Shown: positions 448-59,490 of the stretch, one piece after another | Layout: every line of letters starts with the position of its first letter | How positions within the stretch are numbered: the stretch's first letter is position 1 | DNA from: Candidatus Marinacidobacterales bacterium | Lineage (GTDB): Bacteria > Acidobacteriota > Vicinamibacteria > Marinacidobacterales > DATDRI01 | Assembly (NCBI GenBank): GCA_965219415.1 | Contig: CBDCNP010000002.1 | Span: forward strand, 2,624,001-2,688,000 | Direction of reading: 5' to 3' | DNA: 64,000 nucleotides | Program-made: the position numbers and the translations under genes | Notes under the pieces: model-generated | What the model was told of the DNA's origin: nothing | Databases searched by the model: none | The model's input: the letters and a program-made list of their open reading frames with translations, nothing else

Positions 448-580
448 GATGGGCTCCGAAGATAACACCCTCAGGCCAGACGATTGTGAAGCCCACGGCC
501 CTTAACCCGGTCGCAAAACACAGACTCTAAGCTGTTGATTTATGGGCTATTTCAAAAGGGCCGAGTTTTGGCACAGGACG
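448..580. repeat. Type A element left end
   Basis: CTATTTCAAAAGGGCCGAGTTTTGGCACAGGACG directly upstream of the transposase fragment. Confidence 0.9.
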
Positions 581-583
581 GGG

Positions 584-918
584 TGAAACAATACAAAGTT
601 GATCACGGTGAAGGTCCACGCGAGGCTCTGACGACGGCGGAACGTAGCGAATGAGATTCAAGTTCATTCACGCGGAGCGGGTCAACTACCCGGTGCGGTT
701 GATGTGCCGAGTCCTGAGGGTATCGACCAGCGGCTACTACGCTCAGATGAAGCGCGCGCCCAGCAAGCGACAGTGTGAGGATGGGAAACTGAAGCTGCGC
801 ATCCAAGCGATCCACTCGTCACTCGATTACAACAGCCCAATGGTGTTCGAACGGATTCATGACCTCAAAACTGCTCATGCGAGATAATCAAACTGTCCAC
901 TTTTCCTGGGCAAGGTCA
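584..918 (+). mobile_element. IS3-family remnant with internal deletions
   Basis: OrfB start (MRFKFIHAERVNYPVRLMCRVLRVSTSGYY) fused to C-terminal LDYNSPMVFE; right end TGTCCACTTTTCCTGGGCAAGGTCA. Confidence 0.75.
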
Positions 919-928
919 AGAGTGTTAT

Positions 929-1220
929 TCAGGGCGCGGTGTTGGCGGTCGGTCGAGCTCGATGGTCGACCATGACGCGCTGGTGGATCTCGCGGGCCAG
1001 GAAGCGCTTGAGGCATCGGATGAGGTCGCGCTTGGCGAAGCCCTCAGCGGTCCGTCGAGTGACATAGTCGATGGTCGGCTGGTGGAAGCGCATGCGCACG
1101 ATCACGGCGCTGCGTTGATCGCCGCCCGACCGGTGCCGACAGATCAACGCCAAGGCACTCCGGCCAGTCGTAAGCAAGGGTCAGACACCAGCCGAACGAC
1201 CCCACCATCATGCTCACAAT
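929..1220 (-). mobile_element. IS110-family remnant (C-terminal coding fragment plus probable left non-coding region)
   Basis: HQPTIDYVTRRTAEGFAKRDLIRCLKRFLAREI is a typical IS110 C-terminus. Confidence 0.7.
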
Positions 1221-1383
1221 CGTAGGAGTCGCCACGGCTGCCGACGGACGGCTCAATGCCCGCCTCGGCGAGCCGCTCGGTGTAACGGATCGAACGGATC
1301 CTCAGATTTTAACGTCACCGGACTTCAGCTTGCGCCAAACTGTGCATAAGTGCCGTCCTCGCACGACGACGTGGACGAGCCGG

Positions 1384-1425
1384 CAACAGTAAACGGAGCA
1401 AGCACCACTTGATGGCAGAAGCACC
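1384..1425. repeat. Two tandem type B termini
   Basis: CAACAGTAAACGGAGCAAGCACC followed by ACTTGATGGCAGAAGCACC. Confidence 0.75.
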
Positions 1426-1465
1426 GCTTATCGAGTGTATTTGAGCGAGGCTTCGCGGAGCATAA

Positions 1466-1900
1466 TTGATGCACGAGTCCAGTTTTACTATAAGAACTCC
1501 TCGTGACTTCTTACACGAGATGGTCATCCCGCAACACGAAGATTTTATAGGGGAAAATTCTTCCTCACGACACGCATTGCTCACGATTATCCTCGTCTAC
1601 CACATGTATGAGTGGGTGCACGGCAGGAAATTCTGCGGCAATCATTTCAGATCAACCTATGAAAACGAGAGTGGCATAGCTGAAATGTTCGGACTAGCAA
1701 GGAAAATCGCTAATGGTACAAAACATTTTTTACCGAAAGCCAAAACACAGGTACAGGTTGGCTTCTCATCCGATTTTAGCGATGAATTCGAGCGACCCCT
1801 AAACGTAGAATTTGATGATGGCAGGAAAGAGTCAGTAGACATTTTCTTACGCAAGATGGTGGGATTTTGGGTTCTACAAGAAAAAGTCGGTGCTTTTTGA
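1466..1900 (+). CDS. Hypothetical protein, AT-rich, possibly HEPN-like
   Basis: 144-aa ORF visibly lower in GC than its flanks; RKIANGTKH motif. Confidence 0.6.
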   Translation: MMHESSFTIRTPRDFLHEMVIPQHEDFIGENSSSRHALLTIILVYHMYEWVHGRKFCGNHFRSTYENESGIAEMFGLARKIANGTKHFLPKAKTQVQVGFSSDFSDEFERPLNVEFDDGRKESVDIFLRKMVGFWVLQEKVGAF

Positions 1901-2279
1901 ACCGGAACGAACTCAAGACCTGCATCAGCCTGAGCGTTTCGGATAGACGCGTATACTATTGCGAACGGGCACCGCTGCGACCCGCTACGAAAAATAGTTG
2001 TCCGCCGCCCTGGGAATTCCGGCCCGGAATGTGCAGCGTGCCGAAGATTCGGAACAGTGACCCAGCCGAATCATGCCGAAACCGCCTCACGGCCGGGCTA
2101 AGCGAGACGGCGCATGATCGTTGTCGGCCACCGCGTCGCGTCAGGTTCCTCCATCCCGAACCGGACGTCCCGTTCCCGCCGGGGAGGTTCACATTGTGGA
2201 TAGAGTATCCTGAGCCCAACCTTGCTGCCGCTTTCCAATAGTCATATAAATGGTCAGATATATCGGCGCGGAGAAAAGC

Positions 2280-2953: not shown

Positions 2954-3169
2954 GAGGGACCGAACTGGAGAGAGCATGACGAAGGCTCCACCGATCCCTT
3001 TGCGAACCAGATATCGGCCGCAATCGCGGGTTCCGCCGCGCTTGTGGTTCTTCCCGACACGGTGTCGTGGTCCACAGCCGTCCGCCGCATGCAACCTTGT
3101 CGAGGCGATGAACGGGATTGGCCCGCCCGCGCCGGGCGGCCGCACCGTTCAACCGGCGGGACTTCCGCA

Positions 3170-5542: not shown

Positions 5543-5549
5543 ACCGGAA

Positions 5550-8819: not shown

Positions 8820-9136
8820 CGTCCTGTGCCAAAACTCGGCCCTTTTGAAAAACCATGTCTGTAATTTAATGCACCGTAAAGTCTTAGTGTCATTTTACCA
8901 ACACTTAATGGCGGAAGCACCCATGAGGTCTGTGTGAGCGGCAGGGCTGCCCGATCGAACAACGGCTGCCTGACCAACAGTAGGAATTGCACATGGTACG
9001 TCATGATGGATCCGAAGATAACACCCTCGGGCCAGACGATTGTAAAGCCCACGGCCCTTGGCACCATCGCAAAACACAGACGCTAAGCTGCTGATTTATC
9101 AGCTATTTCAAGAGGGCCGAGTTTTGGCACAGGACG
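8820..9136. mobile_element. Composite mini-element: two inverted A left ends enclosing a B end and a transposase start fragment
   Basis: CGTCCTGTGCC at 8820, GGCACAGGACG ending 9136, B end 8858-8921. Confidence 0.85.
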
Positions 9137-9139
9137 GGG

Positions 9140-11237: not shown

Positions 11238-11322
11238 GCCTCACACGGTCAAACCTCTGCGAGTCACCCCGGCAGAGCCGGAGGTTTACCTGTGATAATT
11301 AAAGATCCAGGGGACTAGTGGC

Positions 11323-12786
11323 ATGAGCACATCCAAAGAAGAGTTCACGTCTCGATGGGGGATCCTGCTGACCTCGATCGGCATGGCGGTCGGCACCGGG
11401 AACATCTGGCGTTTTCCACGAGTTGCCGCCGCGAATGGAGGAGGATCGTTTCTCATCCCCTGGGTGATCTTCCTGTTCGCGTGGGCGATCCCGCTTCTTC
11501 TCGTCGAGTTCGCTCTCGGCAAGACCACCCGCCGCGGCCCGGCGGGCGCCGTTGGAACGTTGATAGGAGAACGCTACAACTGGTTGGGCGTTTTCGTGGG
11601 ACTGGTGACGTGCTTCATCACGTTCTATTACTCCGTCGTCACCGGGTGGTGTCTGAAGTACTTTACCGTTTCCTTGGGCACGGTGTTCTCCGCCGACAAT
11701 GCCGAGAGTTACTGGACGCGATTCACTAGCGATCCCATCCAACCGGTCATCTTCCACGCCATAGCACTCGCTATAGGATGCTCCATCATTTATAGAGGCG
11801 TCGTCCGTGGTATCGAGCGGACCAACCGCATCCTCATCCCGGCGCTTTTCGTGCTCCTCATCATCGCGGCCATCCGTGCGGTCACTCTTCCCGGGGCCGT
11901 GAAAGGCCTGGCCTATCTGTTCACGCCGAACTGGGAAGACCTCGGAAACTACCAAGTCTGGCTGGCAGCGCTAACCCAATCCGCGTGGAGCACCGGCGCG
12001 GGCTGGGGCCTGGTCACGACCTATGGCGTGTACTTCCGCAAGAAAGACACGTTCACGCTGACGACGCTCACGACCGCGTTCGGCAACAGTTCGGCTTCGC
12101 TTCTCGCCGGCATCGCGGTGATGTGTACCGTCTTCGCCCTTCTTCCCGAAGACCAGGCCTCGGCCGCTCTCGCTGCCGGCAACGAAGGCCTGACGTTCAT
12201 CTGGATGCCGCAGCTTTTCTCGTCGATGCCCGGAGGGCGACTCTTTCTCCCCATTTTCTTCCTCGCGCTGAGCTTCGCGGCGATTTCGTCGCTCATCGCC
12301 ATGCTCGAAATGGCATCCCGCATGATGATGAACCTGGGTTTTTCGCGCACCCGCGCCGTGGCCACGGTCGGCGTGGTGTCGTTTGTGCTCGGCCTTCCCT
12401 CGGCGTTTTTCATGGGCTTTTTCAAGAATCAGGATTGGGTCTGGGGCATCGGCCTCATGTTCTCCGGTTTCTTCATCGCGGTGACCGTCATCAAGTACGG
12501 AGCGGCGAAATTCCGGGAGGAGCTCATCAACACCGAAGATGAGAAGCATCCGATCGGTAGCTGGTTCGTGTGGGTCATCTCGATCGTCGTGCCGCTCGAG
12601 TTTCTTGCCATGCTGGCATGGTGGTTCTACCAATCGGCGACGCAATTCGATCCCGATGGCTGGTGGAAGCTCCGGAGTGAATCGAGCGTTGGGACCGCCG
12701 TCATCCAAATTTCGGTGCTCGTCGTCGTGGTTGTCATCACCAACACCTACTGGGTCCACCGCCTGAAAAAGAGTAGCGGATCGTGA
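11323..12786 (+). CDS. Sodium-dependent transporter, NSS/SNF family
   Basis: GMAVGTGNIWRFP, NGGGSFLIPW, many TM helices. Confidence 0.95.
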   Translation: MSTSKEEFTSRWGILLTSIGMAVGTGNIWRFPRVAAANGGGSFLIPWVIFLFAWAIPLLLVEFALGKTTRRGPAGAVGTLIGERYNWLGVFVGLVTCFITFYYSVVTGWCLKYFTVSLGTVFSADNAESYWTRFTSDPIQPVIFHAIALAIGCSIIYRGVVRGIERTNRILIPALFVLLIIAAIRAVTLPGAVKGLAYLFTPNWEDLGNYQVWLAALTQSAWSTGAGWGLVTTYGVYFRKKDTFTLTTLTTAFGNSSASLLAGIAVMCTVFALLPEDQASAALAAGNEGLTFIWMPQLFSSMPGGRLFLPIFFLALSFAAISSLIAMLEMASRMMMNLGFSRTRAVATVGVVSFVLGLPSAFFMGFFKNQDWVWGIGLMFSGFFIAVTVIKYGAAKFREELINTEDEKHPIGSWFVWVISIVVPLEFLAMLAWWFYQSATQFDPDGWWKLRSESSVGTAVIQISVLVVVVVITNTYWVHRLKKSSGS

Positions 12787-12970
12787 GCTTGGAGCTCGCG
12801 GAGAAGGACAAAGCACTCCTCGCGGGCGAACTCGGTCGTGCTGCGAAGATGGCGATGTCCATCCTCGTGCGCATGGCCGACGTGTACCGCGCGGAGCGCA
12901 TGCTCGACATCACCGGCGCTCACGTCGACAGCACCATCTACGTTGGCGACGCTGGGCTCGAGTTCAGATC
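12783..12970 (+). pseudogene. Aconitase X (DUF521)-like N-terminal fragment
   Basis: LLAGELGRAAKMAMSILVRMADVYRAERMLDITGAHVDST; cut by the MITE at 12975. Confidence 0.7.
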
Positions 12971-12974
12971 AGAT

Positions 12975-13154
12975 CCTGTGCCTTCTATTTATTCATCCGT
13001 GCGCGCCGAACTTGATCGGTCTCCGGTCTCCCGGGACCATGCCTGCATGATCTCGTCGTTTGTTCGCGCTCGGCCCTTGGCACGGCCGCAAACACAGACA
13101 CTAAGTTGCTGATTTATGGGCTATTTCAAAAGGGCCGAGTTTTGGCACAGGACG
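12975..13154. mobile_element. C-A MITE, 180 bp
   Basis: CCTGTGCCTTCTATTT ... GAGTTTTGGCACAGGACG. Confidence 0.9.
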
Positions 13155-14019: not shown

Positions 14020-14149
14020 TTCGAGGCTCGCGAGCGGCCATCAGCACGCCTTTTACTTCCTTAAAGATCGGTCGGAAAACACGGCGGTTCAGGGCGCTGA
14101 GGACTCTAATATTGCGCCGCCGTTTATGCTTGGAGGAGGGAATGTACCT

Positions 14150-16951
14150 GTGACCGTCAGCCAACTCGATTTCGCTCGTTTTCTTCGACGATCTCCGACC
14201 TCCCGGATTCGATCAGCGGCGTTCGCCTTGGGAACGATGTTGTTAGCCCAAGCCGCCAGTGCGCAGACGCTAGAGGTGAAGGTTGTCGATCCGCTTTCTT
14301 TCGCCGTGACCAACGCGACGGTCGCGATTGGCGATCGGGAGGTGCGGACCGACGGTACGGGTACGGCAGTGTTTCAAAGCCTGGGTGCCGGCCCGCACTC
14401 CGTTGTGGTTTCGGCTCCCGGCTTCGCGACAGCAATTGAGGAGGTGGCCGAGTCGGAAGGAACTGTCACGATCGAACTGCAGGTACAGTCGGTCAGCGAG
14501 GTCATCAACGTGCAAGCCAACGTCGGCACCCGAGCGCTGCCGCGGACGGTCACAGAGTCGGTCGTACCCATCGACGTCATCTCGTCCAACGACATGGTCG
14601 GCCGAGGTGATACGGACATCGCGGATCAGTTGAGAACCGTCCTGCCCTCCTACAATGTCAACGCCCAGCCCGTCGGCGACGCGGCCAGGATCGTTCGGCC
14701 AGCAACCCTCCGTGGCCTGGCACCCGATCACACGCTGATCCTGGTCAACGGGAGACGGCGGCATCGGTCGGCGATCATCACTTGGCTGGGGGGCGGATTT
14801 GCAGACGGCGCCCAGGGACCGGATATCTCGGTTATCCCGTCGATCGCGCTGCGGCAGGTCGAAGTGCTGCGGGATGGCGCCTCGGCCCAGTACGGCTCAG
14901 ACGCCATCGCAGGTGTCATGAACTTCCGACTCAAGGACGACTCCTCCGGTGGCAGTTTGGAGTTTCGTACCGGCCGTTTCATCGCGGGTGACGGTGGCAC
15001 GCACACCATTTCCGGCAACCTCGGTCTGCCGTTAGGGCCGGCCGGTTTTGCCAACCTGAGTGTCGAGTACGGCAACTCTGGCGATACCAGCCGCAGCGTC
15101 CAGCGTACCGACGCTGCGGCTCTCATTAGGAGTGGCAATACCCATGTCGCGGATCCGGCGCAGATCTGGGGCTCTCCGAAAATCGACGACGATTTCAAGT
15201 TTTGGGGCAACTTCGGACGCGTCTTCAACAAGGTACAACTTTATGGTCATACGAATTACGCCAGCAGGAGGGTAACCGGCGGGTTCTTCTTCCGTAATCC
15301 CAATACCCGGGCTGCGGTCTTCAGCGCTGATGCCGGCGAGACCCTGCTCATCGGCGATGTGCTCGACGCTCAAGACGGGATCCTCGATGGTTCGGCTAAC
15401 TGCCCTGAGGTGCCGGTCGTCAACGGGGTCCCCCGTCAGGAGACCCTTTCCAGAGTCTTCCTTGATCCCGGCTGTTTCTCTTTCCAGGAAATCTTCCCAG
15501 GGGGGTTCACGCCGCAGTTTGGCGGTGAGCGGACCGACGCATCCGTGGTCGCCGGTCTCCGCGGCCAAGCCGCGGGAAGAATGGTTTGGGATGCCAGCAT
15601 CAGCCAGGGCTACAGTGCAGTGGACTTTTTCATCTTCAACACAGTCAATGCTTCACTGGGTCCGACAACACCCACCGACTTCGATCCCGGTCTCTACCGG
15701 CAGCAGGACCGCGGCTTCAATCTGGATCTTAGCTACGCCGTCAACGAGCGCGTCCACCTGGCTGGCGGTGGCGAGTGGCGTGAGGAACATTTCGAGATTG
15801 GCCTTGGCCAGAGGGAGTCGTGGGAGATCGGCCCGTACGCCCCTCAGGGCTTCAGCGCGGGCTCCAACGGCTTTCCCGGATTCAGTCCCATCGCCGCCGG
15901 CCAATGGAGCCGCAGCAACATAGCGCTCTACGGCGATGTCGAGTTGCGGGGTAACGTAGGCAAGTGGGCAGTCGCCACCGCCGCCAGGTTCGAAGACTTT
16001 GAAGATTTTGGCGCCACCCTAAACGGCAAGCTCGCTGGCCGTTACCAATTGACCCAAGATTGGGCACTGCGCGGGAGCGTGAGTAGCGGATTTCGGGCGC
16101 CGACGCCCGGACAGCAGAATGCGTTCAACGTGTCGACCCGTTACGATCTCCGGCTCATGGACTTGGTCAACGACGGCATCATTCCTTCGACCTCGAGGGT
16201 GGCTCATCTCCGAGGCGGGCGGTTGCTGGAACCCGAGCGGTCGATCAACTACAGCCTGGGAGCGGTGATCGACAGAGGCCCGCTCAAGTTCACTGTCGAT
16301 TACTTCCGCATCGATCTTTCCAATCGACTCGCCTTGACACGGTCGTTCGTTCTCAGTCCCGAGGAAGCGGAGAACCTCATCGCAGAGGGCGTCACCAGTG
16401 CGCGCAACCTGCAGAACTTCCGTTTCTTCACTAACGACTTCGAGACCCGGACACAAGGAATCGACTTGGTGGTCACCTATAAGCCGGCGGCGCTCAGCGG
16501 CGACACGACGTTCGACTTCCTCTTCAACCACACCGATACTGAAGTCACTGAGTTCAATCGGGATGTGTTGGACACCGAACGGATCCGTCGATTGCAGAAA
16601 GCGGTTCCCGGAACGCGCTGGAACTTCACCATGCATCATGGTCTCAGCCGATGGCGTCTACTCGGACGCCTCAGCTACTATGGCGACTGGTACGATTCGC
16701 GGGACGTTCGAGTCTACAACGGCGAGTATCTCTTCGACTTTGAAGCTTCCTATCCCCTCAGCGAGTCCATCACCTTCACCGTTGGCGTCCAGAACTTGTT
16801 CGACAATCAACCGCAGGAGAACCCCAACGCCTCCGCCACCGGCAATCGCTACAGCGCATACACGCCGTTTAATTACAATGGTGCGTTCTACTACGTCCGG
16901 CTCGGCTACAACTGGAAGTGGAAGAGTGGTAGCGGCCGGAGTGTCCCCTGA
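14150..16951 (+). CDS. TonB-dependent receptor
   Basis: Plug motifs LRGLAPDHTLILVNGRRR and VEVLRDGASAQYGSDAIAGV; GFRAPT; beta-barrel C-terminus. Confidence 0.95.
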   Translation: MTVSQLDFARFLRRSPTSRIRSAAFALGTMLLAQAASAQTLEVKVVDPLSFAVTNATVAIGDREVRTDGTGTAVFQSLGAGPHSVVVSAPGFATAIEEVAESEGTVTIELQVQSVSEVINVQANVGTRALPRTVTESVVPIDVISSNDMVGRGDTDIADQLRTVLPSYNVNAQPVGDAARIVRPATLRGLAPDHTLILVNGRRRHRSAIITWLGGGFADGAQGPDISVIPSIALRQVEVLRDGASAQYGSDAIAGVMNFRLKDDSSGGSLEFRTGRFIAGDGGTHTISGNLGLPLGPAGFANLSVEYGNSGDTSRSVQRTDAAALIRSGNTHVADPAQIWGSPKIDDDFKFWGNFGRVFNKVQLYGHTNYASRRVTGGFFFRNPNTRAAVFSADAGETLLIGDVLDAQDGILDGSANCPEVPVVNGVPRQETLSRVFLDPGCFSFQEIFPGGFTPQFGGERTDASVVAGLRGQAAGRMVWDASISQGYSAVDFFIFNTVNASLGPTTPTDFDPGLYRQQDRGFNLDLSYAVNERVHLAGGGEWREEHFEIGLGQRESWEIGPYAPQGFSAGSNGFPGFSPIAAGQWSRSNIALYGDVELRGNVGKWAVATAARFEDFEDFGATLNGKLAGRYQLTQDWALRGSVSSGFRAPTPGQQNAFNVSTRYDLRLMDLVNDGIIPSTSRVAHLRGGRLLEPERSINYSLGAVIDRGPLKFTVDYFRIDLSNRLALTRSFVLSPEEAENLIAEGVTSARNLQNFRFFTNDFETRTQGIDLVVTYKPAALSGDTTFDFLFNHTDTEVTEFNRDVLDTERIRRLQKAVPGTRWNFTMHHGLSRWRLLGRLSYYGDWYDSRDVRVYNGEYLFDFEASYPLSESITFTVGVQNLFDNQPQENPNASATGNRYSAYTPFNYNGAFYYVRLGYNWKWKSGSGRSVP

Positions 16952-17075
16952 GAGACCGTGACAAGAAATCCGGTCCGATGACCAGGTTTCAACTGTGTCG
17001 ATCCGGCACCCCACAAATTTTCAAGGACTTGGGCGTTGCAAAACCCTATTTCAGTGTCGATTCGATTGGCGATAC

Positions 17076-17280
17076 CGTCGTGTCCAAAAATACAAACGAA
17101 CTCAAGACCGGCGCGCCGGCTGCTTGGAGTCGCTCCAGAACGGCCCCGTCCTGTGCCAAAACTCGGCTGTGCCTTCTATTTATTCATCCGCGCGCACCGA
17201 ACTTGATTAGTCTCCGGTCTGCCCGCTGTGCTCCGCAAGGAGTCGGTCCAGTGGTACGCGATCTTCTTTTTTGCGGATCA
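17076..17280. repeat. Cluster of element ends: G (17076), A+C (17147), F-like (about 17227), E (about 17258-17281)
   Basis: CGTCGTGTCCAAAAATAC; CGTCCTGTGCCAAAACTCGGCTGTGCCTTC; TGTGCTCCGCAA; GATCTTCTTTTTTGCGGATCACA. Confidence 0.85.
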
Positions 17281-17870: not shown

Positions 17871-17871
17871 A

Positions 17872-18955: not shown

Positions 18956-19058
18956 TTGGACCTCCTCGCAGCATAACAGTGAACCTATTTTAACCGGCGG
19001 TCTACCAGATCTCCGTCAACCAGTTTTCCGTTCAGCACTTTGCCACCCCGTCCTGTGC

Positions 19059-19533: not shown

Positions 19534-19701
19534 CGTCCTGTGCCAAAACTCGGCCCTTTTGAAATAGACCACAAATCAGCAGCTTAGACGCCCTTGGAAT
19601 CCGCGCAGAATCCAGGGTATTTCGCGCCACAAGGCTGACTTCCGACCCATGGGCTGGCGGATGAATAAATAGAAGGCACAGCCGAATTTTGGCACAGGAC
19701 G
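19534..19701. mobile_element. Type A MITE with both 21-bp TIRs, 168 bp
   Basis: CGTCCTGTGCCAAAACTCGGC ... GCCGAATTTTGGCACAGGACG. Confidence 0.92.
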
Positions 19702-21169: not shown

Positions 21170-21390
21170 CGTCCTGTACCAAAACGCGGCCCTTTTGAGA
21201 TGCTTCCGCAATTAAGTGTTGGTGAGATGATGCTAAGACTTTACGCTGCATTAGATTACAGCCAAAATAGCGCTCGCGACCTTCGCCGCGCGCTAAATGG
21301 AGCGTAAGCGCTTTTTTTGCAAAGGAATACGTACACATTACCAACAGCAAACAGCGCAAGCACCAAAGGGCCGAGTTTTGGCACAGGACG
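21170..21390. mobile_element. Two inverted A ends enclosing a complete B1 MITE (21199-21364)
   Basis: Direct reading of termini. Confidence 0.9.
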
Positions 21391-24851: not shown

Positions 24852-26050
24852 CGTGAGGTCAAAATACTCATGCGGCTTCCCGATGGTAGAAACGTAGCAA
24901 CCCGCCAAGCCGTTCACGGGAGCGCACCTTGCGCTCGGACTGAGGTAACTGGTCGCTGGCTGGGAACAGCAGCAGATTCTCCTTGCCTTGATGATTCCTC
25001 TCGTGGTGATAGTAGACGACGTACTCCCTAAGCGCATGACGGAGCGATTTCTCGCCGAACAGGATGAGCTTCGAGAGACATTCCTCTTTGACTGACTTCA
25101 CCCAGCGCTCCGCGAACGAGTTCAAATCCGGGCTCCGTGCGGGCAGCTTGACGGGCGCGACGCCAACCGCCTCGATGGTCCGGTGGAACGACTCGCAGAA
25201 CTTCGAGTCCCGGTCGTGAATGAGGTATCGGCTCGATGACAGAAAGCCGACATCTGCCATGGTCACGTTGCGAGCCACTTGAGTCATCCACTGTTCGTTC
25301 GGATGCGGCGTGATGCCGGCGACGTGGACTCGACGGGTAGCCAGGTGCATGAAGAACAGAACGTAGTACGTCACCAACCCGCCCTGAGTCCACACTTCCG
25401 TGGTGAAGAAATCTGTCGCCGCGAGCACGTCCATGTGCGAGCGGATGAATTCCCTCCACGTCGTGTTCTTCCGACGCTCTGGTGCGAGCGGAATGCCGTG
25501 GCGTTTCAGAATGTTACCGACGGTTTGGTCGGCCACTTCATGCCCAACGTTGGCTAGCGCCCCTGCAATCCGGTCGTAACCCCAGGACTTGTTCTCCTTG
25601 GCGAGACGCACTACCAGCTCTTCGATGTCGGCGTCGATCCGCGGTCGCCCTGGATACGGACGGTTCTCGGAGCTGTCGAACTTCTTCGCGACAAGCCTCC
25701 GGTGCCAACCTAAGATCGTGTCGGGGTTCACGATACTCGCGATCTCATCAAGGGCTTGCTTACCCAGACGCTTTCCGAGCTCGGCCAGAGACCGCCGTTC
25801 GCCATCGGTCAGGCGCAAGCGACCCTGGAGATGATTTCGAAGAACTTGATTCTCAGCCACAAGATACTCGTTGCGCAGGAGCAATTCCTCATCCACGGAT
25901 CCTGAGATGTAGCTCAGCATGGTCTTCCAGTCCATCGCAACTCCTTCCGCTGAACTGGAATACGTATCCGACAGCGATGGCGGATTCAAGCGGCCTTTGG
26001 AAAGGTGCAAACTGCTGACCCGCTGGGCGTTCGAGTATTTTGACCAGAAG
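24852..26050 (-). mobile_element. Apparently intact rve/DDE (IS481-like) IS with type H TIR
   Basis: CGTGAGGTCAAAATACTC at left and GAGTATTTTGACCAGAAG at right (13-bp core GGTCAAAATACTC inverted). Confidence 0.8.
24868..25935 (-). CDS. rve/DDE transposase (integrase core domain)
   Basis: AATDFFT, LIHDRDSKF, NSFAERWVKSVKEEC, RLGGLLRFY; uninterrupted frame. Confidence 0.92.
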   Translation of the reverse strand: MDWKTMLSYISGSVDEELLLRNEYLVAENQVLRNHLQGRLRLTDGERRSLAELGKRLGKQALDEIASIVNPDTILGWHRRLVAKKFDSSENRPYPGRPRIDADIEELVVRLAKENKSWGYDRIAGALANVGHEVADQTVGNILKRHGIPLAPERRKNTTWREFIRSHMDVLAATDFFTTEVWTQGGLVTYYVLFFMHLATRRVHVAGITPHPNEQWMTQVARNVTMADVGFLSSSRYLIHDRDSKFCESFHRTIEAVGVAPVKLPARSPDLNSFAERWVKSVKEECLSKLILFGEKSLRHALREYVVYYHHERNHQGKENLLLFPASDQLPQSERKVRSRERLGGLLRFYHREAA

Positions 26051-26938: not shown

Positions 26939-27029
26939 GTCAGCTTGGTCGCTCGCGTTACTCGGCTGGTCGCCGAGAAGTTCGTCCTCAGCACCTTCCC
27001 TCGCGCGCTGACCACGCTCTCCAGCATGT

Positions 27030-27176
27030 TGTGCCTTCTATTTATTCATCCGCCAGCCCATGGGTCGGAAGTCAGCTCTGCGGCGCGAAATACCCTGGAT
27101 TCTGCGCGGATTCCAACGGCGTCTAAGCTGCTGATTTGTGGTCTATTTCAAAAGGGCCGAGTTTTGGCACAGGACG
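27030..27176. mobile_element. C-A MITE, inverted sibling of 19534-19701
   Basis: Same internal sequence in reverse orientation, lacking one outer TIR. Confidence 0.9.
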
Positions 27177-28207: not shown

Positions 28208-28301
28208 CCTGTGCCTTCTATTTATTCATCCGCGCGCACCGAACTTGCTAAGCTGCTGATTTATGGTCTATTTCGAAAGATCCGAGTTTTGGCACAGGAC
28301 G
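28208..28301. mobile_element. Minimal C-A MITE, 94 bp
   Basis: CCTGTGCCTTCTATTT ... GAGTTTTGGCACAGGACG. Confidence 0.9.
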
Positions 28302-31607: not shown

Positions 31608-31817
31608 CGTAGTCGATCACATCCTGCTGCTGGCGGTTGACCCAGCCAGCCAGAACGAGCAGTAGGAATTGCACGTGGTACGTCATCATGGATCTGAAGA
31701 TAACACCCTCGGGCCAGACGATTGTAAAGCCTACGGCCCTTGGCCCGGTCGCAAACACAGACACTAAGCTGCTGATTTATGGTCTATTTCAAAAGGGCCG
31801 AGTTTTGGCACAGGACG
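31608..31817 (-). mobile_element. A left end with transposase start fragment
   Basis: MTYHVQ...QDVIDY; terminus GGCACAGGACG ends at 31817. Confidence 0.88.
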
Positions 31818-38597: not shown

Positions 38598-38827
38598 CGT
38601 CCTGTGCCAAAACTCGGCCCTTTTGAAATAGACCATAAATCAGCATCTTGGTGTCTGTGTTCGCGACCGGGCCAAGGGCCGTAGGCTTTACAATCGTCTG
38701 GCCCGAGGGAGCCTCTCCACGTTCATAAGACGCCGGTGGCGTCGTCGGGTCGATCGGCGCGAAAGCAGCTGAACATGGCAGGTCTAAACCGCGCAATCAA
38801 CGCTGGATCGACTTTTTGCGGAGCACA
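38598..38827. mobile_element. Hybrid A-F mini-element
   Basis: CGTCCTGTGCC ... GATCGACTTTTTGCGGAGCACA. Confidence 0.85.
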
Positions 38828-39135
38828 GTGAGCATCGAAAAGTCCACCACCCCCGGTGGGAGGAGCGCACGTAGGCAAAGACCATGTACCCACGCCCACG
38901 GTCGGCGAAGCGGGCAACTGGCAAGCGAGAGCGGTCACTGCGAGGCACCCGAGAGTTTCATGCGGTCGATATACTCAAGGAACTCGATCTTGCGGCTGAA
39001 ACGGTGGACATTCTTGGCGATTCGGCGAAAGACCTGAAGGCCGTGATGAGCGAATCGGGTCACGACCTCACCCTCGTCGATCTCAGCGCCGTGATGGACG
39101 AACCGTGACCGAAGTGAGTAGGCTTCCTTAACATC

Positions 39136-47270: not shown

Positions 47271-47271
47271 C

Positions 47272-47514: not shown

Positions 47515-47615
47515 CGTGACACCTCCTTGCGTCGAGTCTATATTATGATTGCGCTGCAATCAAGACCGCTTCCCCTGCATCCATCCGGAGTGTGGGAATA
47601 TTAGAATTCGGAGGC

Positions 47616-49006
47616 TGTGATCCGCAAAAAAGAAGATCGCGTATTGACGGGCAGACAGCCATGGGAGTTGAGGTCCTGAGAACTCGTGTTCGCCTCGGTG
47701 GAGGTTCTGCACTCTGTCGCCGCCGAGCCACCGACGCAATAACGTGCTCAAGAAATAACGCATTATTCGCCGCGAGAGGCTAGCTCAGTCAGGCGACGCG
47801 TGACAACCGGTAATCGTGATGGAGCCCACCAAGGACCGGCCTCGAGGCAACGACGCGCTGGGCGGGTAATCGATGTCGGTGCTGGTCCCGGTTTCATCGG
47901 AAGCTCGACACAGGGGGTGGGAAGGCGTGGGCCGAGCGATGAATGTGGTCTCGCCCGATTGTAGTACTCACGCCATTTGGTCAAGAGTCGGCGAAGATGT
48001 TCCTCTGACAGCGGTATCAGAAAATCCAAGCACTCCCGGCGTGTGGTGCCGATGAGTCTCTCACAGTAGGCATTCGCCTGCGGTGCTCTGCGCGGCGTCC
48101 TCAACGGCCGAACACCCATCCCCCGGACGGAGCGGCGGAGGTTTGTTGAGAACTTGTCATCGCGGTCCACGATGACGAATCGATAGTCGTGCTCGCACCC
48201 AATCACCTCCCGGAACTGTTGCAGCGTCCACTCCGCGGTCGGATGCGCCGTCACGTTGAAGTGAAGCATCTTGCGGGTGCCGATTTCCATGATGACGAAG
48301 ACGTAAAGCACGCGAAAGCTGACGGTGACTACGTTGAAAAAATACGCAGCGACGACCGCTTTTGCGTGATTCCGCACGAATGTCGCCCAGCGATGCGACG
48401 CATTGCGCCGGTCCGGGCTGCCGTCATCTCGAATGGGTATGTACTTCCGAACGGTGCGCGGCGAGACGCGGATGCCAAGCTTGACGAGGAACTCGTTGGC
48501 GATTCTCTCTTCGCCCCACGTGATGTTCGTGACCGCCATTTCGGCGGTTCGTTTTTTTAGATCCTCTGGTAGTGTTGGACGTCTTTTGGGCCGAGACTTC
48601 CAACGCCAGAACAGCCGAAACCCTTTCCTGTGCCACAGAACAAGCGTATCGGGCTTGACCACGATAAGGGCTTCCTTCCAGTCGAATAGCCTCGCGAGAG
48701 TCGCCATCGTGAGCCGTGTGGCCTTATCCGTGCGCCGAGGCGCTTGCTTACGCTCGACAAAGAACGGGAGCTGCTTCCGAAGGAAAAGGTTCTCTGCGGC
48801 GAGGGCGCTGCGCGAGCGGCATAGGTTGCGAGCGAACGCGATGGCGTCCAGAACAATAGACCGGATATTCGAAAACAGTGGCACGAGCGAACCTCTCCTC
48901 GTTCCCAAGACGCTGGTGGCGTCGTCGGGTCGACCGGCACGAAGCAGCCGAGCATGGCAGCTCTAAACCGCGCAATCAACGCCGGATCGACTTTTTGCGG
49001 AGCACA
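47616..49006 (-). mobile_element. rve/DDE (IS481-like) IS with E/F TIRs
   Basis: TGTGATCCGCAAAAA ... TTTTTGCGGAGCACA; transposase 47763-48908 with first catalytic Asp apparently changed (AAYFF) and C-terminal frameshift. Confidence 0.85.
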
Positions 49007-49059
49007 GCTAGCGAATTCGTGGAACTTCAAGCGATTCGGGTCCGATTCCGCCTTCTGTG

Positions 49060-50263: not shown

Positions 50264-50345
50264 CGTCCTGTGCTAAAACTCGGCCCTTTTGAAATAGGCC
50301 ATAAATCAGCAGCTTAGTGTCTGTGTTCGCGACTGGGCCAAGCCC
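50264..50345. repeat. Type A end
   Basis: CGTCCTGTGCTAAAACTCGGCCCTTTTGAAATAG. Confidence 0.9.
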
Positions 50346-52958: not shown

Positions 52959-54276
<1,318 letters not shown>

Positions 54277-54417: not shown

Positions 54418-54434
54418 ACCACTGACGAAACCAT

Positions 54435-55988: not shown

Positions 55989-55998
55989 CCCTGCCACG

Positions 55999-56069
55999 CG
56001 TCCTGTGCCAAAACTCTGCCCTTGGTGGATAGAGTCTTCGAGGGTTCGGTTGTATTTTTGGACACGACG
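55999..56069. mobile_element. Hybrid A-G mini-element, 71 bp
   Basis: CGTCCTGTGCCAAAACTC ... GTATTTTTGGACACGACG. Confidence 0.8.
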
Positions 56070-57097: not shown

Positions 57098-57925
57098 CGT
57101 CCTGTGCCAAAACTCGGCCCTTTTGAAATAGGCCATAAATCAGCAGCTTAGTGTCTGTGTTTGCGACCGTGCCAAGGGCCGCAGGCTCTACAATCGTCTT
57201 GGGCGGACGGGTCGTCACCAGGCAGAAGACCACGTAGGCGAGAGCGAATATCCAAGCGTGTTCCTGAATCTGTCGCAGCGATAGCGCCCCAATGAGCCTT
57301 GATGAAGGTGCTCCACGGCATACTCTTGCTCCGCTCCGGGGCAGGCGCGATACCGTGCTCGGCGAGGGCCCCCTTGATGGTGTTGCGCCCAAGTTCATAT
57401 CCGAGGTTCTTGAGTGCGCCCTGCAGGCGCGTATATCCGCATGTCGGGTTCTCCCGTGCCACACGTACCATGAGCTCACGGACGTCTTTCGCCGTGGGAG
57501 GTCGGCCTGGACTCCGGTTCTTGGTGCCATCGTACTTGGCTGCGATGAGGTAGCGGTACCAGCGCAGCAGCGTAGCGGGTGTGGCAACGGACGCAATCTC
57601 GGCCAGCATCCAGCGGCCCAAGGCCTGGGCCTTGACGGCGAGCCTACGCCGGTCGTCGTCGGAGAGCCTGAGACGTTTGCCCCGAACCCGGCTCGGAGCA
57701 CACGGTTCTCCTCTCGCAGTTAGTCAATCACGTCCTGCTGCTGGCGGTTGACCTAGCCAGAACGAGCAGTAAGAATTGCACATGGTAGGTCATCATGGAG
57801 CTGAAGATAACACCCTCGGGCCAGACGATTGTAAAGCCCACGGCCCTTGACCTAGTCGCAAAACACAGACTCTAAGTGGCTGATTTATGGCCTATTTCAA
57901 AAGGGCCGAGTTTTGGCACAGGACG
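57098..57925. mobile_element. Two inverted A left ends enclosing a decayed 5' half of the A-type transposase
   Basis: Termini at 57098 and 57925; fragment reads to [16 protein letters not shown]. Confidence 0.88.
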
Positions 57926-58005
57926 GGGTGTCTCGGACAGTGAGGTCAAACGCATCCGCCGTTTCATCCGCGAGCCGTACGGAATGGTATTGGTGACGGG
58001 GCCCG
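57926..58005 (+). pseudogene. PilB/GspE ATPase internal stub
   Basis: IRRFIREPYGMVLVTGP. Confidence 0.6.
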
Positions 58006-58019
58006 AGCACGAGTCGGGA

Positions 58020-58454
58020 TCATCCGCCGATGCCGTCGGCAGAGAGGTAGGCGTCGAGCGAGTGGAGCTCCTGCGACAGGTCGTCGACCATGTTCCTCAA
58101 CAAGTGTCGCGTCGATAGCATCCCGGCGACGTTCCCCCCGCGGTCGATGATGGGAAGATGGCGAATGTGGTTGCTCGTCATCATCGCGAGAGCCTCGCGA
58201 TGATGCATGTTGCTGGCAGCAACGATGGGCGGCGAGGTCATCACGTCGCGGATTGGGGTCTCATCCAAGTGGCTTCCTTTGGCCACCACACGCTTCAGGA
58301 GATCGCTAGCGGTGAAGATGCCCTTCGCCGATTGGTTCTCCACCACCACGACTGCGCCGGCACCGCAGTCAACCATTGTTTCCACGGCGTGTCGGACCGT
58401 GGACTCGGTTCCGATCGTCACCGCCGGAGTCCGGGCGATCTTGAGCAGCTTCAT
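58020..58454 (-). CDS. CBS domain pair protein
   Basis: GIFTASDLLKRV, IRDVMT, IRHLPII. Confidence 0.9.
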   Translation of the reverse strand: MKLLKIARTPAVTIGTESTVRHAVETMVDCGAGAVVVVENQSAKGIFTASDLLKRVVAKGSHLDETPIRDVMTSPPIVAASNMHHREALAMMTSNHIRHLPIIDRGGNVAGMLSTRHLLRNMVDDLSQELHSLDAYLSADGIGG

Positions 58455-58849
58455 AAACTGGCCTCCTTGTCTCGCACCCTCGGCGTGGCGCTGGACGCGA
58501 TCCCCGTACGGGCGTTCAGTTAGGCAACCGAGAAATCAGGTATAGCGTGCCTCCTCACGAGTAGGGGGAGGGCGACTTGTAGACGTAGATCTTATACACC
58601 AATAAGCGGTCGGATTTCAACTCCAAGTCACATCGCAGCGCTGCTACTTCGACGTGAAAACATCTGGGTGTGGGCTCCGAGATATTGGGTCTGGGAACTA
58701 GCTCAGGGTTCGGGTTCCGGTTGCATTCTGGTGAGGAGGCGCCCGACGATTGCAGACCTGCTCGCATCGCGCTACCGTGGCGATGCTGGTCGTTTCCCCA
58801 CGAGACCGCACTTGCAATCAGCGCCCCCTCGACTTGGGACGGAAAGCCC

Positions 58850-59197
58850 ATGAACGCCATCGACCGTCCCTTTGCAAAAATCATCAATGGAGCCTCCCAG
58901 TTCCTAATCCCCGTCTTTCAGCGCGACTACAGTTGGAACGAGGCGGAGTGCAAACAGTTGTGGCAGGACATCCTCCAGATCGCATCGGATCCGTCCGAGC
59001 GAAGTCACTTCCTGGGGTCCGTCGTCTACATCTCGACGGGGGACACATCGGCAGCATTCACTCGCTGGCTCCTGATTGATGGTCAGCAACGCGTCACCAC
59101 GCTGACGCTCCTCCTGGCAGCGCTTCGCGACCACATCGCCGAAAGCGGATGGTCCGGGACCGATGATGGGCCCACCGCGAAGCGTGTCGAGGCGTAC
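58850..59197 (+). pseudogene. DUF262 protein N-terminal fragment
   Basis: IPVFQRDYSW, HFLGSVV, IDGQQRVTT; cut by the CAGGGAATT repeat block. Confidence 0.85.
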
Positions 59198-59325
59198 CTG
59201 TTCGGTCATCTCAAATTCCCTGCTATTTCGGAACAGGGAATTGCTATCTAACCATCTGAAATATAGAGGGTTACCACGTGGAAAAACGGCCCAATCAGCC
59301 CCCAAATAGCCTAAATTCCCTGTTT
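59197..59325. repeat. CAGGGAATT repeat block, inverted copy of 36550-36680
   Basis: Direct sequence comparison. Confidence 0.85.
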
Positions 59326-59329
59326 TTCC

Positions 59330-59490
59330 CCTCCTGTGCCAAAACTCGGCCCTTTTGAAATAGACCGCAAGAGCGAACCTTTCGACGTTTACAATGACGT
59401 CGGATCACCTCATCCGTTCGTCGCGAAACGGCCAATCCTTGCAGCTCTAAACTGCGGAATCAACGACGGATCGAGTTTTTGCGGAGCACA
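59330..59490. mobile_element. Hybrid A-F mini-element
   Basis: TCCTGTGCCAAAACTCGGC ... TTTTTGCGGAGCACA. Confidence 0.8.

Follow-up and report, generated by a model that had tools for sequence, protein, structure and literature searches.

A lattice of type A insertion-sequence ends in an Acidobacteriota genome resembles the product of IS26-like one-ended joining rather than an integron

Introduction

The IS481 family comprises elements of ~1 to 1.4 kb with a TGT core in the terminal inverted repeats and a target-site duplication (TSD) of 4 to 15 bp. Mobilization from one fixed IS end with a variable distal boundary is typical of ISEcp1-type elements, which use alternative ends, and of the ISCR/IS91 rolling-circle elements. 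ISEcp1 units carry a 5-bp TSD, and both ISEcp1 and ISCR/IS91 use other transposase families. For the IS26 family, gene clusters interspersed with IS copies are reported to form when the transposase catalyses one strand transfer at an end of the IS (PMC7885326).

The locus described here resembles the translocatable units and targeted conservative cointegration of IS26/IS6 in that gene units lie among IS copies (Harmer & Hall; PMC7885326). The apparent one-end reaction at an IS end without a TSD, and the IS tips that form the constant boundaries of moved segments, are further likenesses to IS26. TSD-less junctions at IS ends were indeed found for the elements studied here, called type A. However, MITEs and remnants of ends, rather than whole IS copies, make up most of the type A boundaries. 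Type A ends also appear to join non-IS "pseudo-ends" (cgAYCC^CGTnC), truncating genes, and direct orientation of type A neighbours is only weakly visible. Membership of the type A transposase in the IS6/IS26 family was rejected, since Pfam and NCBIfam place the enzyme with rve_3/IS481/IS3. The locus also recalls integrons, as it is an array of single-gene units with short repeated sites between them and with a unit pool common to several genomes. In contrast to integrons, the repeated sites are termini of several IS families, and the units, many of which are truncated, have no uniform orientation.

Results

Type A ends in the window

We searched the window, i.e., the whole 64,000-nucleotide stretch analysed (C3:2624001-2688000), for the type A end CGTCCTGTGCCAAAACTCGGC with up to 3 mismatches. 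Eighteen matches were found, compared to 0.00 expected (100 dinucleotide shuffles, maximum 0). Position 19049 carries a 19th end, reduced to 10 nt (CGTCCTGTGC), with another terminus (GGTGCTTC...) directly adjoining. The lattice of at least 19 type A ends, proposed in a preliminary description from the DNA letters, is thus real, and the end placed there at about 59331 has its outer base at 59330. That description was also correct that most copies sit in mini-elements of 70 to 830 bp (71 to 828 bp were found) and that the end precedes the start of a transposase beginning MTYHVQ. None of the 11 full-length type A copies of the genome lies in the window, which agrees with its remark that an intact transposase of this type is absent from it. 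The elements and units are listed in Table 1. About 60% of the window is repeated sequence, and 55 catalogued termini of at least 8 interleaved families were counted.

Table 1. Type A elements, related insertion sequences and gene units of the window
Feature	Position	Strand	Outer base(s) of type A end
Type A IS 5' fragment: terminal repeat and first ~112 transposase codons (ORF 130-468)	134..580	-	580
317-bp A-A MITE, chimeric: ~32 nt of A end, ~70 nt of E1 terminus (to 8921), then A left end and first transposase codons; 1063-bp IS256-like fragment adjoins from 9137	8820..9136		8820, 9136
SNF-symporter gene unit; bounds are E1 tip (11237) and B tip (12976)	11238..12975	+	
179-bp A-B hybrid MITE; B tip 12976/12977	12976..13154	-	13154
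TonB-dependent receptor gene unit; 99.3% identical to G003:C2:105003-108092	14072..17146	+	
20-nt A-end remnant, right boundary of the TonB-receptor unit; B terminus adjoins at 17167	17147..17166	+	17147
10-nt A-end remnant; E1 terminus adjoins at 19059	19049..19058	+	19049
168-bp A-A element: 148-bp A-B MITE (19534-19681), then inverted A-end remnant of ~20 nt	19534..19701		19534, 19701
221-bp A-A element: A termini (29 and 26 nt) around a 166-bp E1-E2 MITE (21199-21364)	21170..21390		21170, 21390
Type G IS, third related element; 414-aa rve_3 transposase (24868-26112); CGTCTGGTCAAAATACTCG-like termini	24853..26048	-	
148-bp A-B MITE; 97% complementary to 19534-19680	27029..27176	-	27176
93-bp A-B hybrid mini-element	28209..28301	-	28301
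A left end and transposase gene start, truncated	31609..31817	-	31817
231-bp A-C hybrid mini-element	38598..38828	+	38598
Type C IS, second IS481-like element, with CTGTGCTCCGCAAAAA termini; 381-aa rve_3 transposase (47763-48908)	47614..49007	-	
Solo A end (~80 nt), continuing into unique sequence	50264..50342	+	50264
71-bp A-D mini-element	55999..56069	+	55999
828-bp A-A element: type A IS with internal deletion; 5 A-A pairs of such size in the genome	57098..57925		57098, 57925
162-bp A-C hybrid mini-element; A tip CCTCC, one mismatch	59330..59491	+	59330

The autonomous type A insertion sequence

Type A ends form the terminal inverted repeats of a 1428-bp IS, which has one ORF per element, for a predicted 356-aa transposase. 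Genome-wide, 516 type A ends were mapped at ≤2 mismatches and 525 at ≤3, and at least 7 other terminus families were also involved. Six of the 11 full-length copies have an intact ORF (355-356 aa), so that the intact enzyme sought by the preliminary description does exist in the genome; the nearest full-length copy lies 11 kb upstream of the window. The adjacent +/- end pairs, 119 in number, showed length modes at ~1428 and 317 bp. The type A end was present in 10 of the 40 relatives searched.

The transposase matched the Pfam families rve_3 (39.9 bits, cut-off 26.5) and HTH_21 (31.8 bits, cut-off 28.1), and also HTH_32. The best of 4 NCBIfam families was IS481 (NF033577; 97 bits, E 1.3e-27), below its curated equivalog cut-off of 224 bits, and the score for IS3 was 83.9 bits, under the cut-off of 160. 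Judged by these profiles, the putative transposase is nearest to IS481/IS3 and under both curated cut-offs. As 7,993 of 8,000 scored candidates reached E ≤ 1e-20, its family is a very large, generic IS family. Type A resembles IS481 elements in its single ORF, its HTH plus rve-type DDE transposase with NF033577 as best match, its size and the TGT core of its terminal repeats. However, apart from the low score, it differs from them in having no 4-15 bp TSD and a conserved CGTCC tip located 5 nt outside the TGTGCC core.

MITEs and chimeric families

Most type A ends were found in MITEs, many of them chimeric with termini of other families. The MITEs of the size modes 317, 148/149 and 179 bp (and others) have 54-100 nt in common with the ends of the 1428-bp IS. 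They are short, non-coding and high-copy and carry the termini of an autonomous IS of the same genome, as IS-derived MITEs of other bacteria do. Unlike those, they lack a TSD, and many of their families have two unlike termini from different IS families, yet are amplified as units. A-B MITEs of 148/149 bp (n=64) and 178-180 bp (n=37) and A-E1 MITEs of 102 bp (n=20) and 124-126 bp (n=28) were the chimeric forms counted. Flanking sequence is unique to each A-B copy. Those of exactly 148 bp (n=45) are on average 97.5% alike. The junction of a 20-nt A end with a B terminus, as at the right end of the TonB-receptor unit, was counted 15 times genome-wide. Most of the ~1,800 termini in the genome would escape IS and MITE finders that depend on TSDs and matched inverted repeats.

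Neighbouring A-B MITEs no more than 5 kb apart had the same orientation in 23 cases and the opposite one in 8 (p = 0.011, one of 12 tests), and those within 20 kb in 49 and 31 cases, respectively; for E1-E2 MITEs the numbers were 22 and 18. The direct orientation predicted by the explanation favoured below is thus only weakly seen. There were 38 B(+)...B(-) pairs within 8 kb, a number near chance by rough estimate. Composite transposons were rejected, since these pairs showed no direct repeats on inspection and the flanks of A elements never co-map without the element.

Target sites of type A ends

None of the 112 A-A pairs had a direct repeat of 4 bp or more (4-9 bp, several offsets), in agreement with the earlier observation that convincing TSDs are missing. 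A 3-bp direct repeat was found in 1 of the 112, compared to a shuffle mean of 1.9. TSDs were likewise at shuffle level in A-B (121), A-D (30), A-E1 (52) and D-D (20) elements. No A-B element had a TSD of 5 bp or more, shorter matches being at shuffle level, and A-C elements showed no TSD. In the IS3-like control, by comparison, a 3-bp TSD was present in 4 of 13 copies (0.8 expected), and clean empty sites with a 3-bp duplication were found. TSDs were also absent from the E1-E2 MITEs, which belong to an unrelated transposase, suggesting that some of the loss of TSDs may be a general feature of this genome. The preliminary description had noted that the flanks of an element do not rejoin, and indeed no true empty site and no filled/empty pair was found for any of ~250 A-containing elements. 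The true stagger (0 or 2 bp, e.g., a cryptic CG) is therefore not directly readable.

An asymmetric motif, cgAYCC^, was observed immediately outside the type A ends, left or right (516 ends), with A at -4 in 67%, C/T at -3 in 87%, C at -2 in 89% and C at -1 in 79%. The motif was identical at 58 IRL and 44 IRR ends, at D ends and at 161 ends of G003. Uninterrupted targets (93 distinct A sites) continued with C at +0 (44%), G at +1 (56%), T at +2 (54%) and C at +4 (43%), and CGT followed the junction in 18 of 109 A and D sites, as opposed to a 1.3% background. This continuation, CGTnC, resembles the IS tip. A GGRT half-site showed no preferred distance within 70 bp of the uninterrupted targets, and none of 114 junctions had an in-register reciprocal junction.

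Gene units shared between loci and genomes

Copies of end-bounded segments with 97-100% identity are present elsewhere in this genome, and gene-sized units (0.4-3.9 kb) recur in another genus (G003) at 97-99.8% identity. One core region compared with a same-genus genome was ~86% identical. Of 400,000 G003 bases, 208,666 match G000 at ≥90%, with almost no collinearity among the 62 low-copy HSPs. The units shared with G003 are in scrambled order. Unit boundaries fell at a repeat of at least 10 copies in 85 of 98 cases (87%), compared to 6 of 49 control midpoints (12%). Type A ends mark the points at which a unit stops short compared with its uninterrupted copy.

The SNF-symporter unit is 99.8% identical to C3:1826421-1828115 and 99% identical to G003:C2:444410-446143. 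The A-D element is duplicated together with a BCCT transporter unit (54430-56067) at C3:4236361-4238004 with 98.5% identity. The TonB-receptor unit has its left breakpoint inside an IS3-like terminal repeat and ends at ...GAACGGCCC, at the same base in both genomes, where an A end follows in this genome and a D end in G003. Among other copies at A junctions, 5 of 317 carry a D, B or C end instead. In all 4 copies of a 2.2-kb acyl-CoA-synthetase unit the left boundary is fixed at the B tip, and the right boundary is variable. This is reminiscent of one-ended mobilization by ISEcp1 and ISCR/IS91, from which it differs in the missing TSD and in that the unit usually lies outside the IS tip.

The cargo of the window includes transporters, peptidases and defence genes, as well as gene fragments of a TonB receptor (31779-32756) and of hsdR (44698-46429). 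Neither the integron tyrosine recombinase IntI nor any recombinase other than transposases was found among 30 window ORFs scanned with Pfam. A G000/G001 comparison revealed a variable hotspot holding a 9.9-kb nest of IS elements.

Discussion

The explanation that we favour, with about even confidence, is a selfish IS/MITE family whose single ends become joined, in an IS26-like manner, to sites resembling an end, and which thereby moves, truncates and duplicates adjacent genes. The type A IS has multiplied in this Acidobacteriota genome and in those of several relatives, chiefly in non-autonomous form (deletion derivatives, MITEs, and chimeric MITEs with a second end from other IS families). 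Rather than insert two ends into a single staggered target, its transposase would frequently attach one IS end in register to an end already present or to a sequence like one, and each one-ended event would swap the DNA attached to that end. Homologous recombination among the hundreds of copies probably contributes. With ~500 of them it must exchange flanks as well, to an extent that is inseparable from transposase action. Repetition of such events would tile accessory islands with ends and move IS-tip-bounded segments, as IS26 translocatable units do. The mechanism is read from static genomes of related MAGs, in which kin are not independent. The pattern looks like a by-product of one-ended, TSD-less joining that is closest to IS26 behaviour and not to integrons, and a by-product of a selfish element, as opposed to a dedicated cassette system, is its best reading.

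Ordinary IS/MITE biology, possible but somewhat unlikely, would involve two-ended insertion with a normal TSD that was later erased in an old "IS graveyard" through homologous recombination between copies, IS-mediated adjacent deletions and nested insertions. The repeat content and the many interleaved termini of the window are consistent with it, as are the TSD-less E1-E2 MITEs and the hotspot filled by an IS nest, and the 4 of 13 IS3-like copies that retain a TSD indicate that flanks do get scrambled. However, cgAYCC on both flanks would need a palindromic TSD, GGRT...AYCC, and no such signal was present at -12 to -5; the uninterrupted target continues with CGTnC, not GGRT. The complete lack of exact 4-9 bp repeats in A-A pairs also argues against erasure, and the young 148-bp A-B family, with 97.5% pairwise identity, already lacks TSDs of 5 bp or more. 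Reciprocal half-sites, expected from flank exchange, were not found either. If ordinary insertion and recombination did produce the locus, it would be a striking but unsurprising IS expansion. The preliminary description had proposed a dedicated, selected exchange of gene cassettes, in which the ends would be recombination sites used in the manner of an integron but by a DDE enzyme. Its view of the ends as mosaic junctions holds, given the recurring segments and the boundaries located at repeats; its integron-like shuffling system is not supported, as the ends belong to an autonomous IS and its MITEs together with at least 7 other terminus families. The close identity of single-gene units between genera, well above that of the core region within the genus, would fit such a system, as would boundaries at termini, one junction reused with different end types, and the nature of the cargo. 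But no cassette grammar is apparent: units have one fixed and one variable boundary, many units are truncated genes or pseudogene fragments, orientation is near-random, and the ends come from unrelated or distantly related families. There is also no platform or promoter and, among the 30 window ORFs scanned, no dedicated recombinase, the enzyme being the IS's own transposase from a generic family. We thus consider a cassette system improbable.

A false mosaic, created by MAG contigs mis-joined at repeats or by the collapse of co-occurring organisms, is highly improbable. The genome does belong to a set of MAGs, repeats at 95-100% identity are common to bins of different genera, and public short-read contigs break at repeats and cannot confirm the unit order. 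However, the contigs measure 5.7, 2.1 and 0.28 Mb without N, as opposed to repeats of only 0.07-1.4 kb. Shared units differ by 0.2-3% in different contexts and are thus not collapsed copies, and the same units and the G003-type breakpoint at 14072 occur in contigs of four independent studies. Mis-joins would not produce the sequence-specific motif at the flanks, the similarity of targets in register, or the discrete hybrid families, all of which are features of the DNA itself.

If the favoured one-ended joining holds, TSD-less, end-targeted joining would not be confined to IS26 and its family, which is of clinical importance. Its occurrence in a large environmental IS family would help explain how uncultured bacteria exchange accessory genes one at a time, including those for transporters, peptidases, restriction and other defences. 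Annotation of such islands by synteny will mislead. A bolder version, unlikely as it stands, is that an rve_3 family transposes without target duplication by placing a single end in register onto an end or end-like cgAYCC^CGTnC. The targeted reaction of the IS26 type would then have arisen independently a second time; in these Acidobacteriota it would act through unlike-ended MITEs and move single genes between genera as IS-tip-bounded units. The unnamed but very widespread rve_3 transposase family concerned has termini of the form CGT-N3-4-GTGCC-AAAACTCG and extends from Acidobacteriota to Myxococcota and Planctomycetota.

Identity and distribution of the type A element

We searched the window for the 21-nt terminus CGTCCTGTGCCAAAACTCGGC and found 18 matches with at most 3 mismatches, against 0.00 expected from 100 dinucleotide-preserving shuffles. 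All 18 fall on positions at which the preliminary description had placed type A transposon ends; of the nineteenth, at 19049, only 10 nt are left (CGTCCTGTGC), and a different terminus adjoins them directly. The window corresponds to C3:2624001-2688000 of the source genome (8.05 Mb in three contigs, C1 to C3, with no N), in which 494 A ends were counted at ≤1 mismatch (247 per strand; 0 for a reversed-pattern control), 516 at ≤2 and 525 at ≤3. By contig, C3 carries 480 ends, nearly all past 1.8 Mb, C2 (0.28 Mb) 35 and C1 (2.07 Mb) 1. The ends were scarce in C3:0-1.8 Mb and formed dense islands from 1.8 Mb on, and 33 of the 35 C2 ends lay within the initial 100 kb of that contig. The genome seems to be split between a clean core and IS-saturated plasticity zones. 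A strand or replication bias of A ends was rejected, with 92 ends on the plus and 74 on the minus strand in the first 400 kb of contig C2 of G003, a relative from another genus of the same family.

Adjacent plus and minus A ends formed pairs with length modes of ~1428 and ~317 bp. The 1428-bp unit contains a single ORF of 356 aa that starts with MMTYHVQ and carries the Pfam domains rve_3, HTH_21 and HTH_32. Its best NCBIfam matches were IS481, at 97 bits for a cut-off of 224, and IS3, at 83.9 bits for a cut-off of 160; the type A transposase is thus related to both families while scoring under the curated cut-off of each. When one copy was used as a BLAST reference against the genome, 11 full-length copies were found at 93-96% identity to it, and an ORF of 355-356 aa was kept in 6 of the 11. 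Copy depth was ~33-50 at any internal position versus ~410-440 at the terminal 40 nt. None of the 11 full-length copies lies in the window, the nearest being 11 kb upstream at C3:2611390-2612817. This agrees with the earlier statement that the window holds no intact A-type transposase, and the intact enzyme that was to be sought is present elsewhere in the genome, in the 6 copies with an ORF of 355-356 aa. The preliminary observation was correct in each particular that could be checked.

Among the best 80 of 522 confirmed stretches (547 candidates), the transposase occurred at 96-97% identity in MAGs titled Candidatus Marinacidobacterales bacterium, and homologues of 57-66% identity occurred in MAGs labelled Myxococcota, Planctomycetota, other Acidobacteriota, Gammaproteobacteria and others. 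Of the 40 relatives searched, 10 carried the exact A end, frequently with hundreds of copies, and in the remaining 30 it was not found. With 7,993 of 8,000 scored candidates at E ≤ 1e-20, the transposase family is very large; its members bear generic names only, such as "transposase InsO family". At 10 of 24 distant loci we found a shared terminal architecture, CGT followed by 3-4 nt, GTGCC or a near variant, and AAAACTCG, with no obvious direct repeats at these 10; at the remaining 14, the simple finder returned a spurious inverted repeat or none. Our literature search returned no paper with the word "Marinacidobacterales", and searches on sponge/Acidobacteria/transposase and on IS481/TSD/MITE turned up nothing specific to the type A element.

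Chimeric mini-elements and other terminus families

Only 138 of the 525 A ends pair with a second A end within 1.6 kb. Sequence read inward of the ends showed that many A ends in the window are partnered by an unlike terminus, and most "solo" A ends are halves of chimeric mini-elements. Genome-wide mapping gave, besides the 525 A ends and likewise at ≤3 mismatches, 241 termini of family B (CTGTGCCTTCTATTTATTCATCC), 116 of C (CTGTGCTCCGCAAAAAGTCGATCC), 218 of D (CGTCGTGTCCAAAAACACAAAC), 441 of E1, 192 of E2 and 58 of the IS3-like F. The first terminus facing each A end was B in 133 cases, E1 in 85, A in 81, E2 in 36, D in 34, C in 19 and F in 2, with none in 135. Sizes were discrete for both A-B elements (148/149 bp, n = 64; 178-180 bp, n = 37; 93 bp, n = 6) and A-E1 elements (102 bp, n = 20; 124-126 bp, n = 28). 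The listed A-B copies each have their own flanks on both sides, and those of exactly 148 bp (n = 45) share a mean identity of 97.5%, indicating that the chimeras were amplified as units. B-B pairs were rare (21 under 4 kb, with no modal size), and B is thus mainly the second end of the A-B MITE.

The C termini are owned by a second IS481-like IS at window 47614-49007, and a related IS, G, lies at ~24853-26048. A 166-bp MITE with the unlike termini E1 (GGTGCTTCCGCC...) and E2 (GGTGCTTGCGCTG...) is present in ~134 copies with a mean identity of 90% and no TSD. Its parent, a ~1200-bp E1-E1 form (25 copies), carries an ORF of 184-344 aa with the motif ERLNLT..R, which we take to be IS1-like. E-type termini adjoin A or D ends exactly past base 10 (CGTCCTGTGC/GGTGCTT and CGTCGTGTGC/GGTGCTT; window 19049-19082 and C3:~4784539), and B termini adjoin A ends past base 20 in 15 copies. 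Some families may target fixed positions within the terminal repeats of other families, as these junctions suggest.

Absence of target site duplications and empty sites

We compared the last k bases of the left flank with the first k bases of the right flank, at several offsets into the element, for 112 A-A pairs from the source genome and 400 kb of G003. Matches for k = 2-9 were at or under the level of shuffled pairings, with 0 for k ≥ 4. The A-B (121), A-D (30), A-E1 (52), D-D (20) and A-C (15) elements were also at shuffle level. The IS3-like F element (1313-1317 bp), used as a control, showed a 3-bp repeat in 4 of 13 copies (0.8 expected), with clean empty sites and a 3-bp duplication at five other places in the source genome and in G003, indicating that the method itself works. 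A palindromic TSD of 6-12 bp gave no signal and was rejected. Composite transposons bounded by B were likewise rejected, as the 38 pairs showed no TSD on inspection and their number was near chance by a rough estimate.

Joined-flank BLAST within the source genome revealed no empty site for the 69 A-A pairs, and none was found for A-type elements across genomes (43 pairs from G003 and 69 from the source genome). Among 510 elements of all classes, empty sites were obtained for the IS3-like control only and for none of the A-type. No flanks of A elements mapped close together elsewhere with a gap lacking the element. A candidate orthologous empty site in the same-genus relative G001 was rejected, the locus being a variable hotspot instead (C3:3796806-3806690 versus G001:C1:5612959-5614290). 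Its flanks are conserved (86-92% identical); between them the source genome has a 9.9-kb IS nest, composed of a 317-bp MITE, a ~2.6-kb IS, a full type A IS and another IS, and G001 has 1.3 kb of unrelated sequence.

Target sequence at the junctions

The flanks outside the 516 A tips were non-random, with A at -4 (67%), C (59%) or T (28%) at -3, C at -2 (89%) and C at -1 (79%). The same motif recurred when 58 transposase-proximal and 44 transposase-distal ends were taken separately, and it is likewise present at D ends and at 161 G003 ends. Homology to uninterrupted copies reaches the tip, so these bases are part of the target itself. At 144 A ends whose flank is low-copy, a second copy of the flank reached the junction; the 317 such copies continued into an A end (68), a D end (3), a B end (1), a C end (1) or other sequence (244). 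De-duplication left 93 distinct uninterrupted A targets with the consensus c-g-A-C-C-C^C-G-T-n-C (C 44% at +0, G 56% at +1, T 54% at +2, C 43% at +4). CGT lay directly past the junction in 18 of the 109 A and D targets, versus a background of 1.3% after CC. The asymmetric target therefore resembles the product junction, that is, flank plus the IS tip CGTCC.

An inverted second half-site, GGRT, showed no preferred distance within 70 bp of the targets. A search for in-register reciprocal junctions elsewhere gave 14 candidates for 114 junctions, of which 0 were clean. A cryptic 2-bp CG duplication in a palindromic AYCC-CG-GGRT was rejected as a rule, with a minority possible, because the uninterrupted targets read CGTnC rather than CGGGRT and 83 of 109 start without CG. 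The junction of each end looks like a separate one-ended, in-register event.

Exchanged and duplicated units

Several gene-sized units of the source genome have further copies of 98-100% identity, and the breakpoints coincide exactly with termini. For the SNF unit (11238-12932), the copy at C3:1826421-1828115 is 99.8% identical; an E1 tip of the window marks the left breakpoint, and a C-type tip of that other copy marks the right one. The BCCT unit together with a 71-bp A-D element (54430-56067) matches C3:4236361-4238004 at 98.5%. At C3:1825515-1828115, the SNF unit lies ~380 bp from a carbonic-anhydrase fragment (98.7% identical to window 27683-28209); in the window, 15 kb separates them. 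A segmental duplication of several kb with A-E1, E2-C and E1-E1 elements (C3:3082355-3085698 and 4979095-4982438) is 100% identical, which points to very recent large duplications within the islands.

Exchange also extends to another genus. The consecutive window segments 11244-12977, 13118-13969, 14072-17161, 17283-17871 and 18499-18971 have counterparts of 97-99% identity at five places dispersed over two contigs of G003; for comparison, one core region aligned with the same-genus G001 is ~86% identical. In the first 400 kb of G003:C2, 208,666 bases match the source genome at ≥90%, and 62 low-copy HSPs (0.4-3.9 kb, most at 97-99.8%) are non-collinear save for two short collinear runs. The preliminary description had called for a comparison of segment order and had named conserved order with simple, TSD-flanked MITE insertions as the contrary picture; the order in G003 is scrambled, and the A-type elements showed neither TSDs nor empty sites. 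Boundaries of units with ≥96% identity lay near repeats (a 14-mer occurring at least 10 times in the source genome, between -12 and +30 nt in one or both genomes) in 85 of 98 cases (87%), versus 6 of 49 midpoints (12%).

Both genomes have the TonB unit ending on the identical base (...GAACGGCCC); the adjoining end is A in the source genome and D in G003, so that one junction has been reused. The left breakpoint of the unit lies within an IS3-like terminal repeat. A 2.2-kb unit, present in two copies per genome, encodes a 595-aa ORF with the motif YTSGTTGDPKG, presumably the signature of an AMP-dependent acyl-CoA synthetase. Its left boundary is exactly the B tip in all four copies, and its right boundary varies (~3710, 3760 or 3805 in locus coordinates), the neighbor being an A-B MITE, an A-A mini-element, a 23-nt A remnant or nothing. 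In at least eight cases an A end in one genome corresponds to a non-IS continuation in the other, and in another case the end is D-like (CGTCCTGTCC), indicating that the ends mark truncation points.

Origin of the lattice

One-ended, end-targeted joining is most likely the origin of the lattice, judging from static genomes. The transposase would often join a single IS end to a second end or to a site that looks like flank plus tip, each time exchanging the DNA that this end carries. Many rounds of such joining, combined with nested insertions and with homologous recombination between the hundreds of copies, could then give rise to the lattice, the chimeric MITEs and the shuffling of units. For the IS26 family, a published account describes gene clusters interspersed with IS copies that arise through a targeted conservative route, which it interprets as one transposase-catalysed strand transfer at an IS end and the subsequent resolution of a Holliday junction (PMC7885326). 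The type A element would shuffle units likewise but is not a member of that family, as its transposase was not assigned to it. Neighboring A-B MITEs within 5 kb stood in direct orientation in 23 of 31 pairs (p = 0.011 in one of 12 tests, among kin that are not independent), which might lend slight support to the analogy; neighboring E1-E2 MITEs were in the same orientation in 22 cases and in opposite orientation in 18.

An ordinary IS combined with recombination is a serious, if rather unlikely, alternative. The E1-E2 MITEs also lack TSDs, so general scrambling of flanks contributes; however, the palindromic GGRT...AYCC duplication was not found. This duplication is precisely what would be needed if both ends attacked one staggered target symmetrically, whether or not the flanks were later exchanged, and that mechanism is taken as excluded. 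We consider it improbable that the lattice is a selected cassette system. The preliminary description had called the mosaic integron-like; the 30 window ORFs scanned include no tyrosine recombinase, the type A lattice is not taken to be an integron, and its existence follows from IS biology. An assembly artefact is very improbable. Six public sequencing runs contained 67-76% of the sampled words, and two more 46% and 31%. Contigs from four public runs are short-read and break at repeats, none spanning the whole stretch, so that the assembly is the sole source for the order of units; the many contig "joints", whose sides measure 18-29 nt, reflect ambiguity of the repeat graph and are neutral on the assembly. 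Runs with small shares of words were labelled sponge metagenome (16-18%) or sediment or seawater (5-6%), which has no bearing on habitat.

The type A element is related to IS481 and IS3 but falls below their curated scores and lacks a TSD. Its short derivatives fit the MITE concept loosely, having no TSD and, in many cases, unlike ends. The interest lies in TSD-less, end-like targeting by a very widespread, generically named transposase family, and also in the exchange of single genes between genera.

Gene content of the window

The window is an accessory and defence island, in which 38,136 of 64,000 bases (~60%) have at least one other genomic copy. The catalogue lists 55 termini of seven types in it.

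Features of the window, with genes from Pfam scans of 30 ORFs
Feature	Position	Basis
Type I restriction-modification hsdR/M/S	3044-8272	Pfam
IS256-like fragment	9137-10199	Pfam
E1-E2 166-bp MITE	11072-11237	
SNF symporter	11323-12786	Pfam
TonB-dependent receptor	14126-16951	Pfam
TPR protein	19776-21140	Pfam
E1-E2 166-bp MITE	21199-21364	
S9 peptidase	22481-24478	Pfam
rve_3 transposase	24868-26112	Pfam
Carbonic anhydrase	27276-28169	Pfam
M20 peptidase	30038-31594	Pfam
Type ISP restriction-modification fragment	33461-35623	Pfam
E1-E2 166-bp MITE	37918-38082	
Complete IS256-like element	39136-40570	Pfam
hsdR fragments	44698-46429	Pfam
rve_3 transposase	47763-48908	Pfam
GmrSD	50957-52186	Pfam
IS3-family transposase	53169-53849	Pfam
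BCCT transporter	54435-55988	Pfam

Defence genes are clustered in the island, with a complete type I restriction-modification operon (hsdR, hsdM and hsdS), a type ISP fragment and a GmrSD-type restriction enzyme. The hsdR fragments are two pieces of a second hsdR-like helicase, a pseudogene. The IS256-like (Transposase_mut) fragment, 1063 bp long, begins one base past the A tip at 9136. It has 22 near-full-length matches in G003 at 98-99%, in addition to partial ones, and ~40-57 copies in the source genome, and represents another very active family common to both genera.
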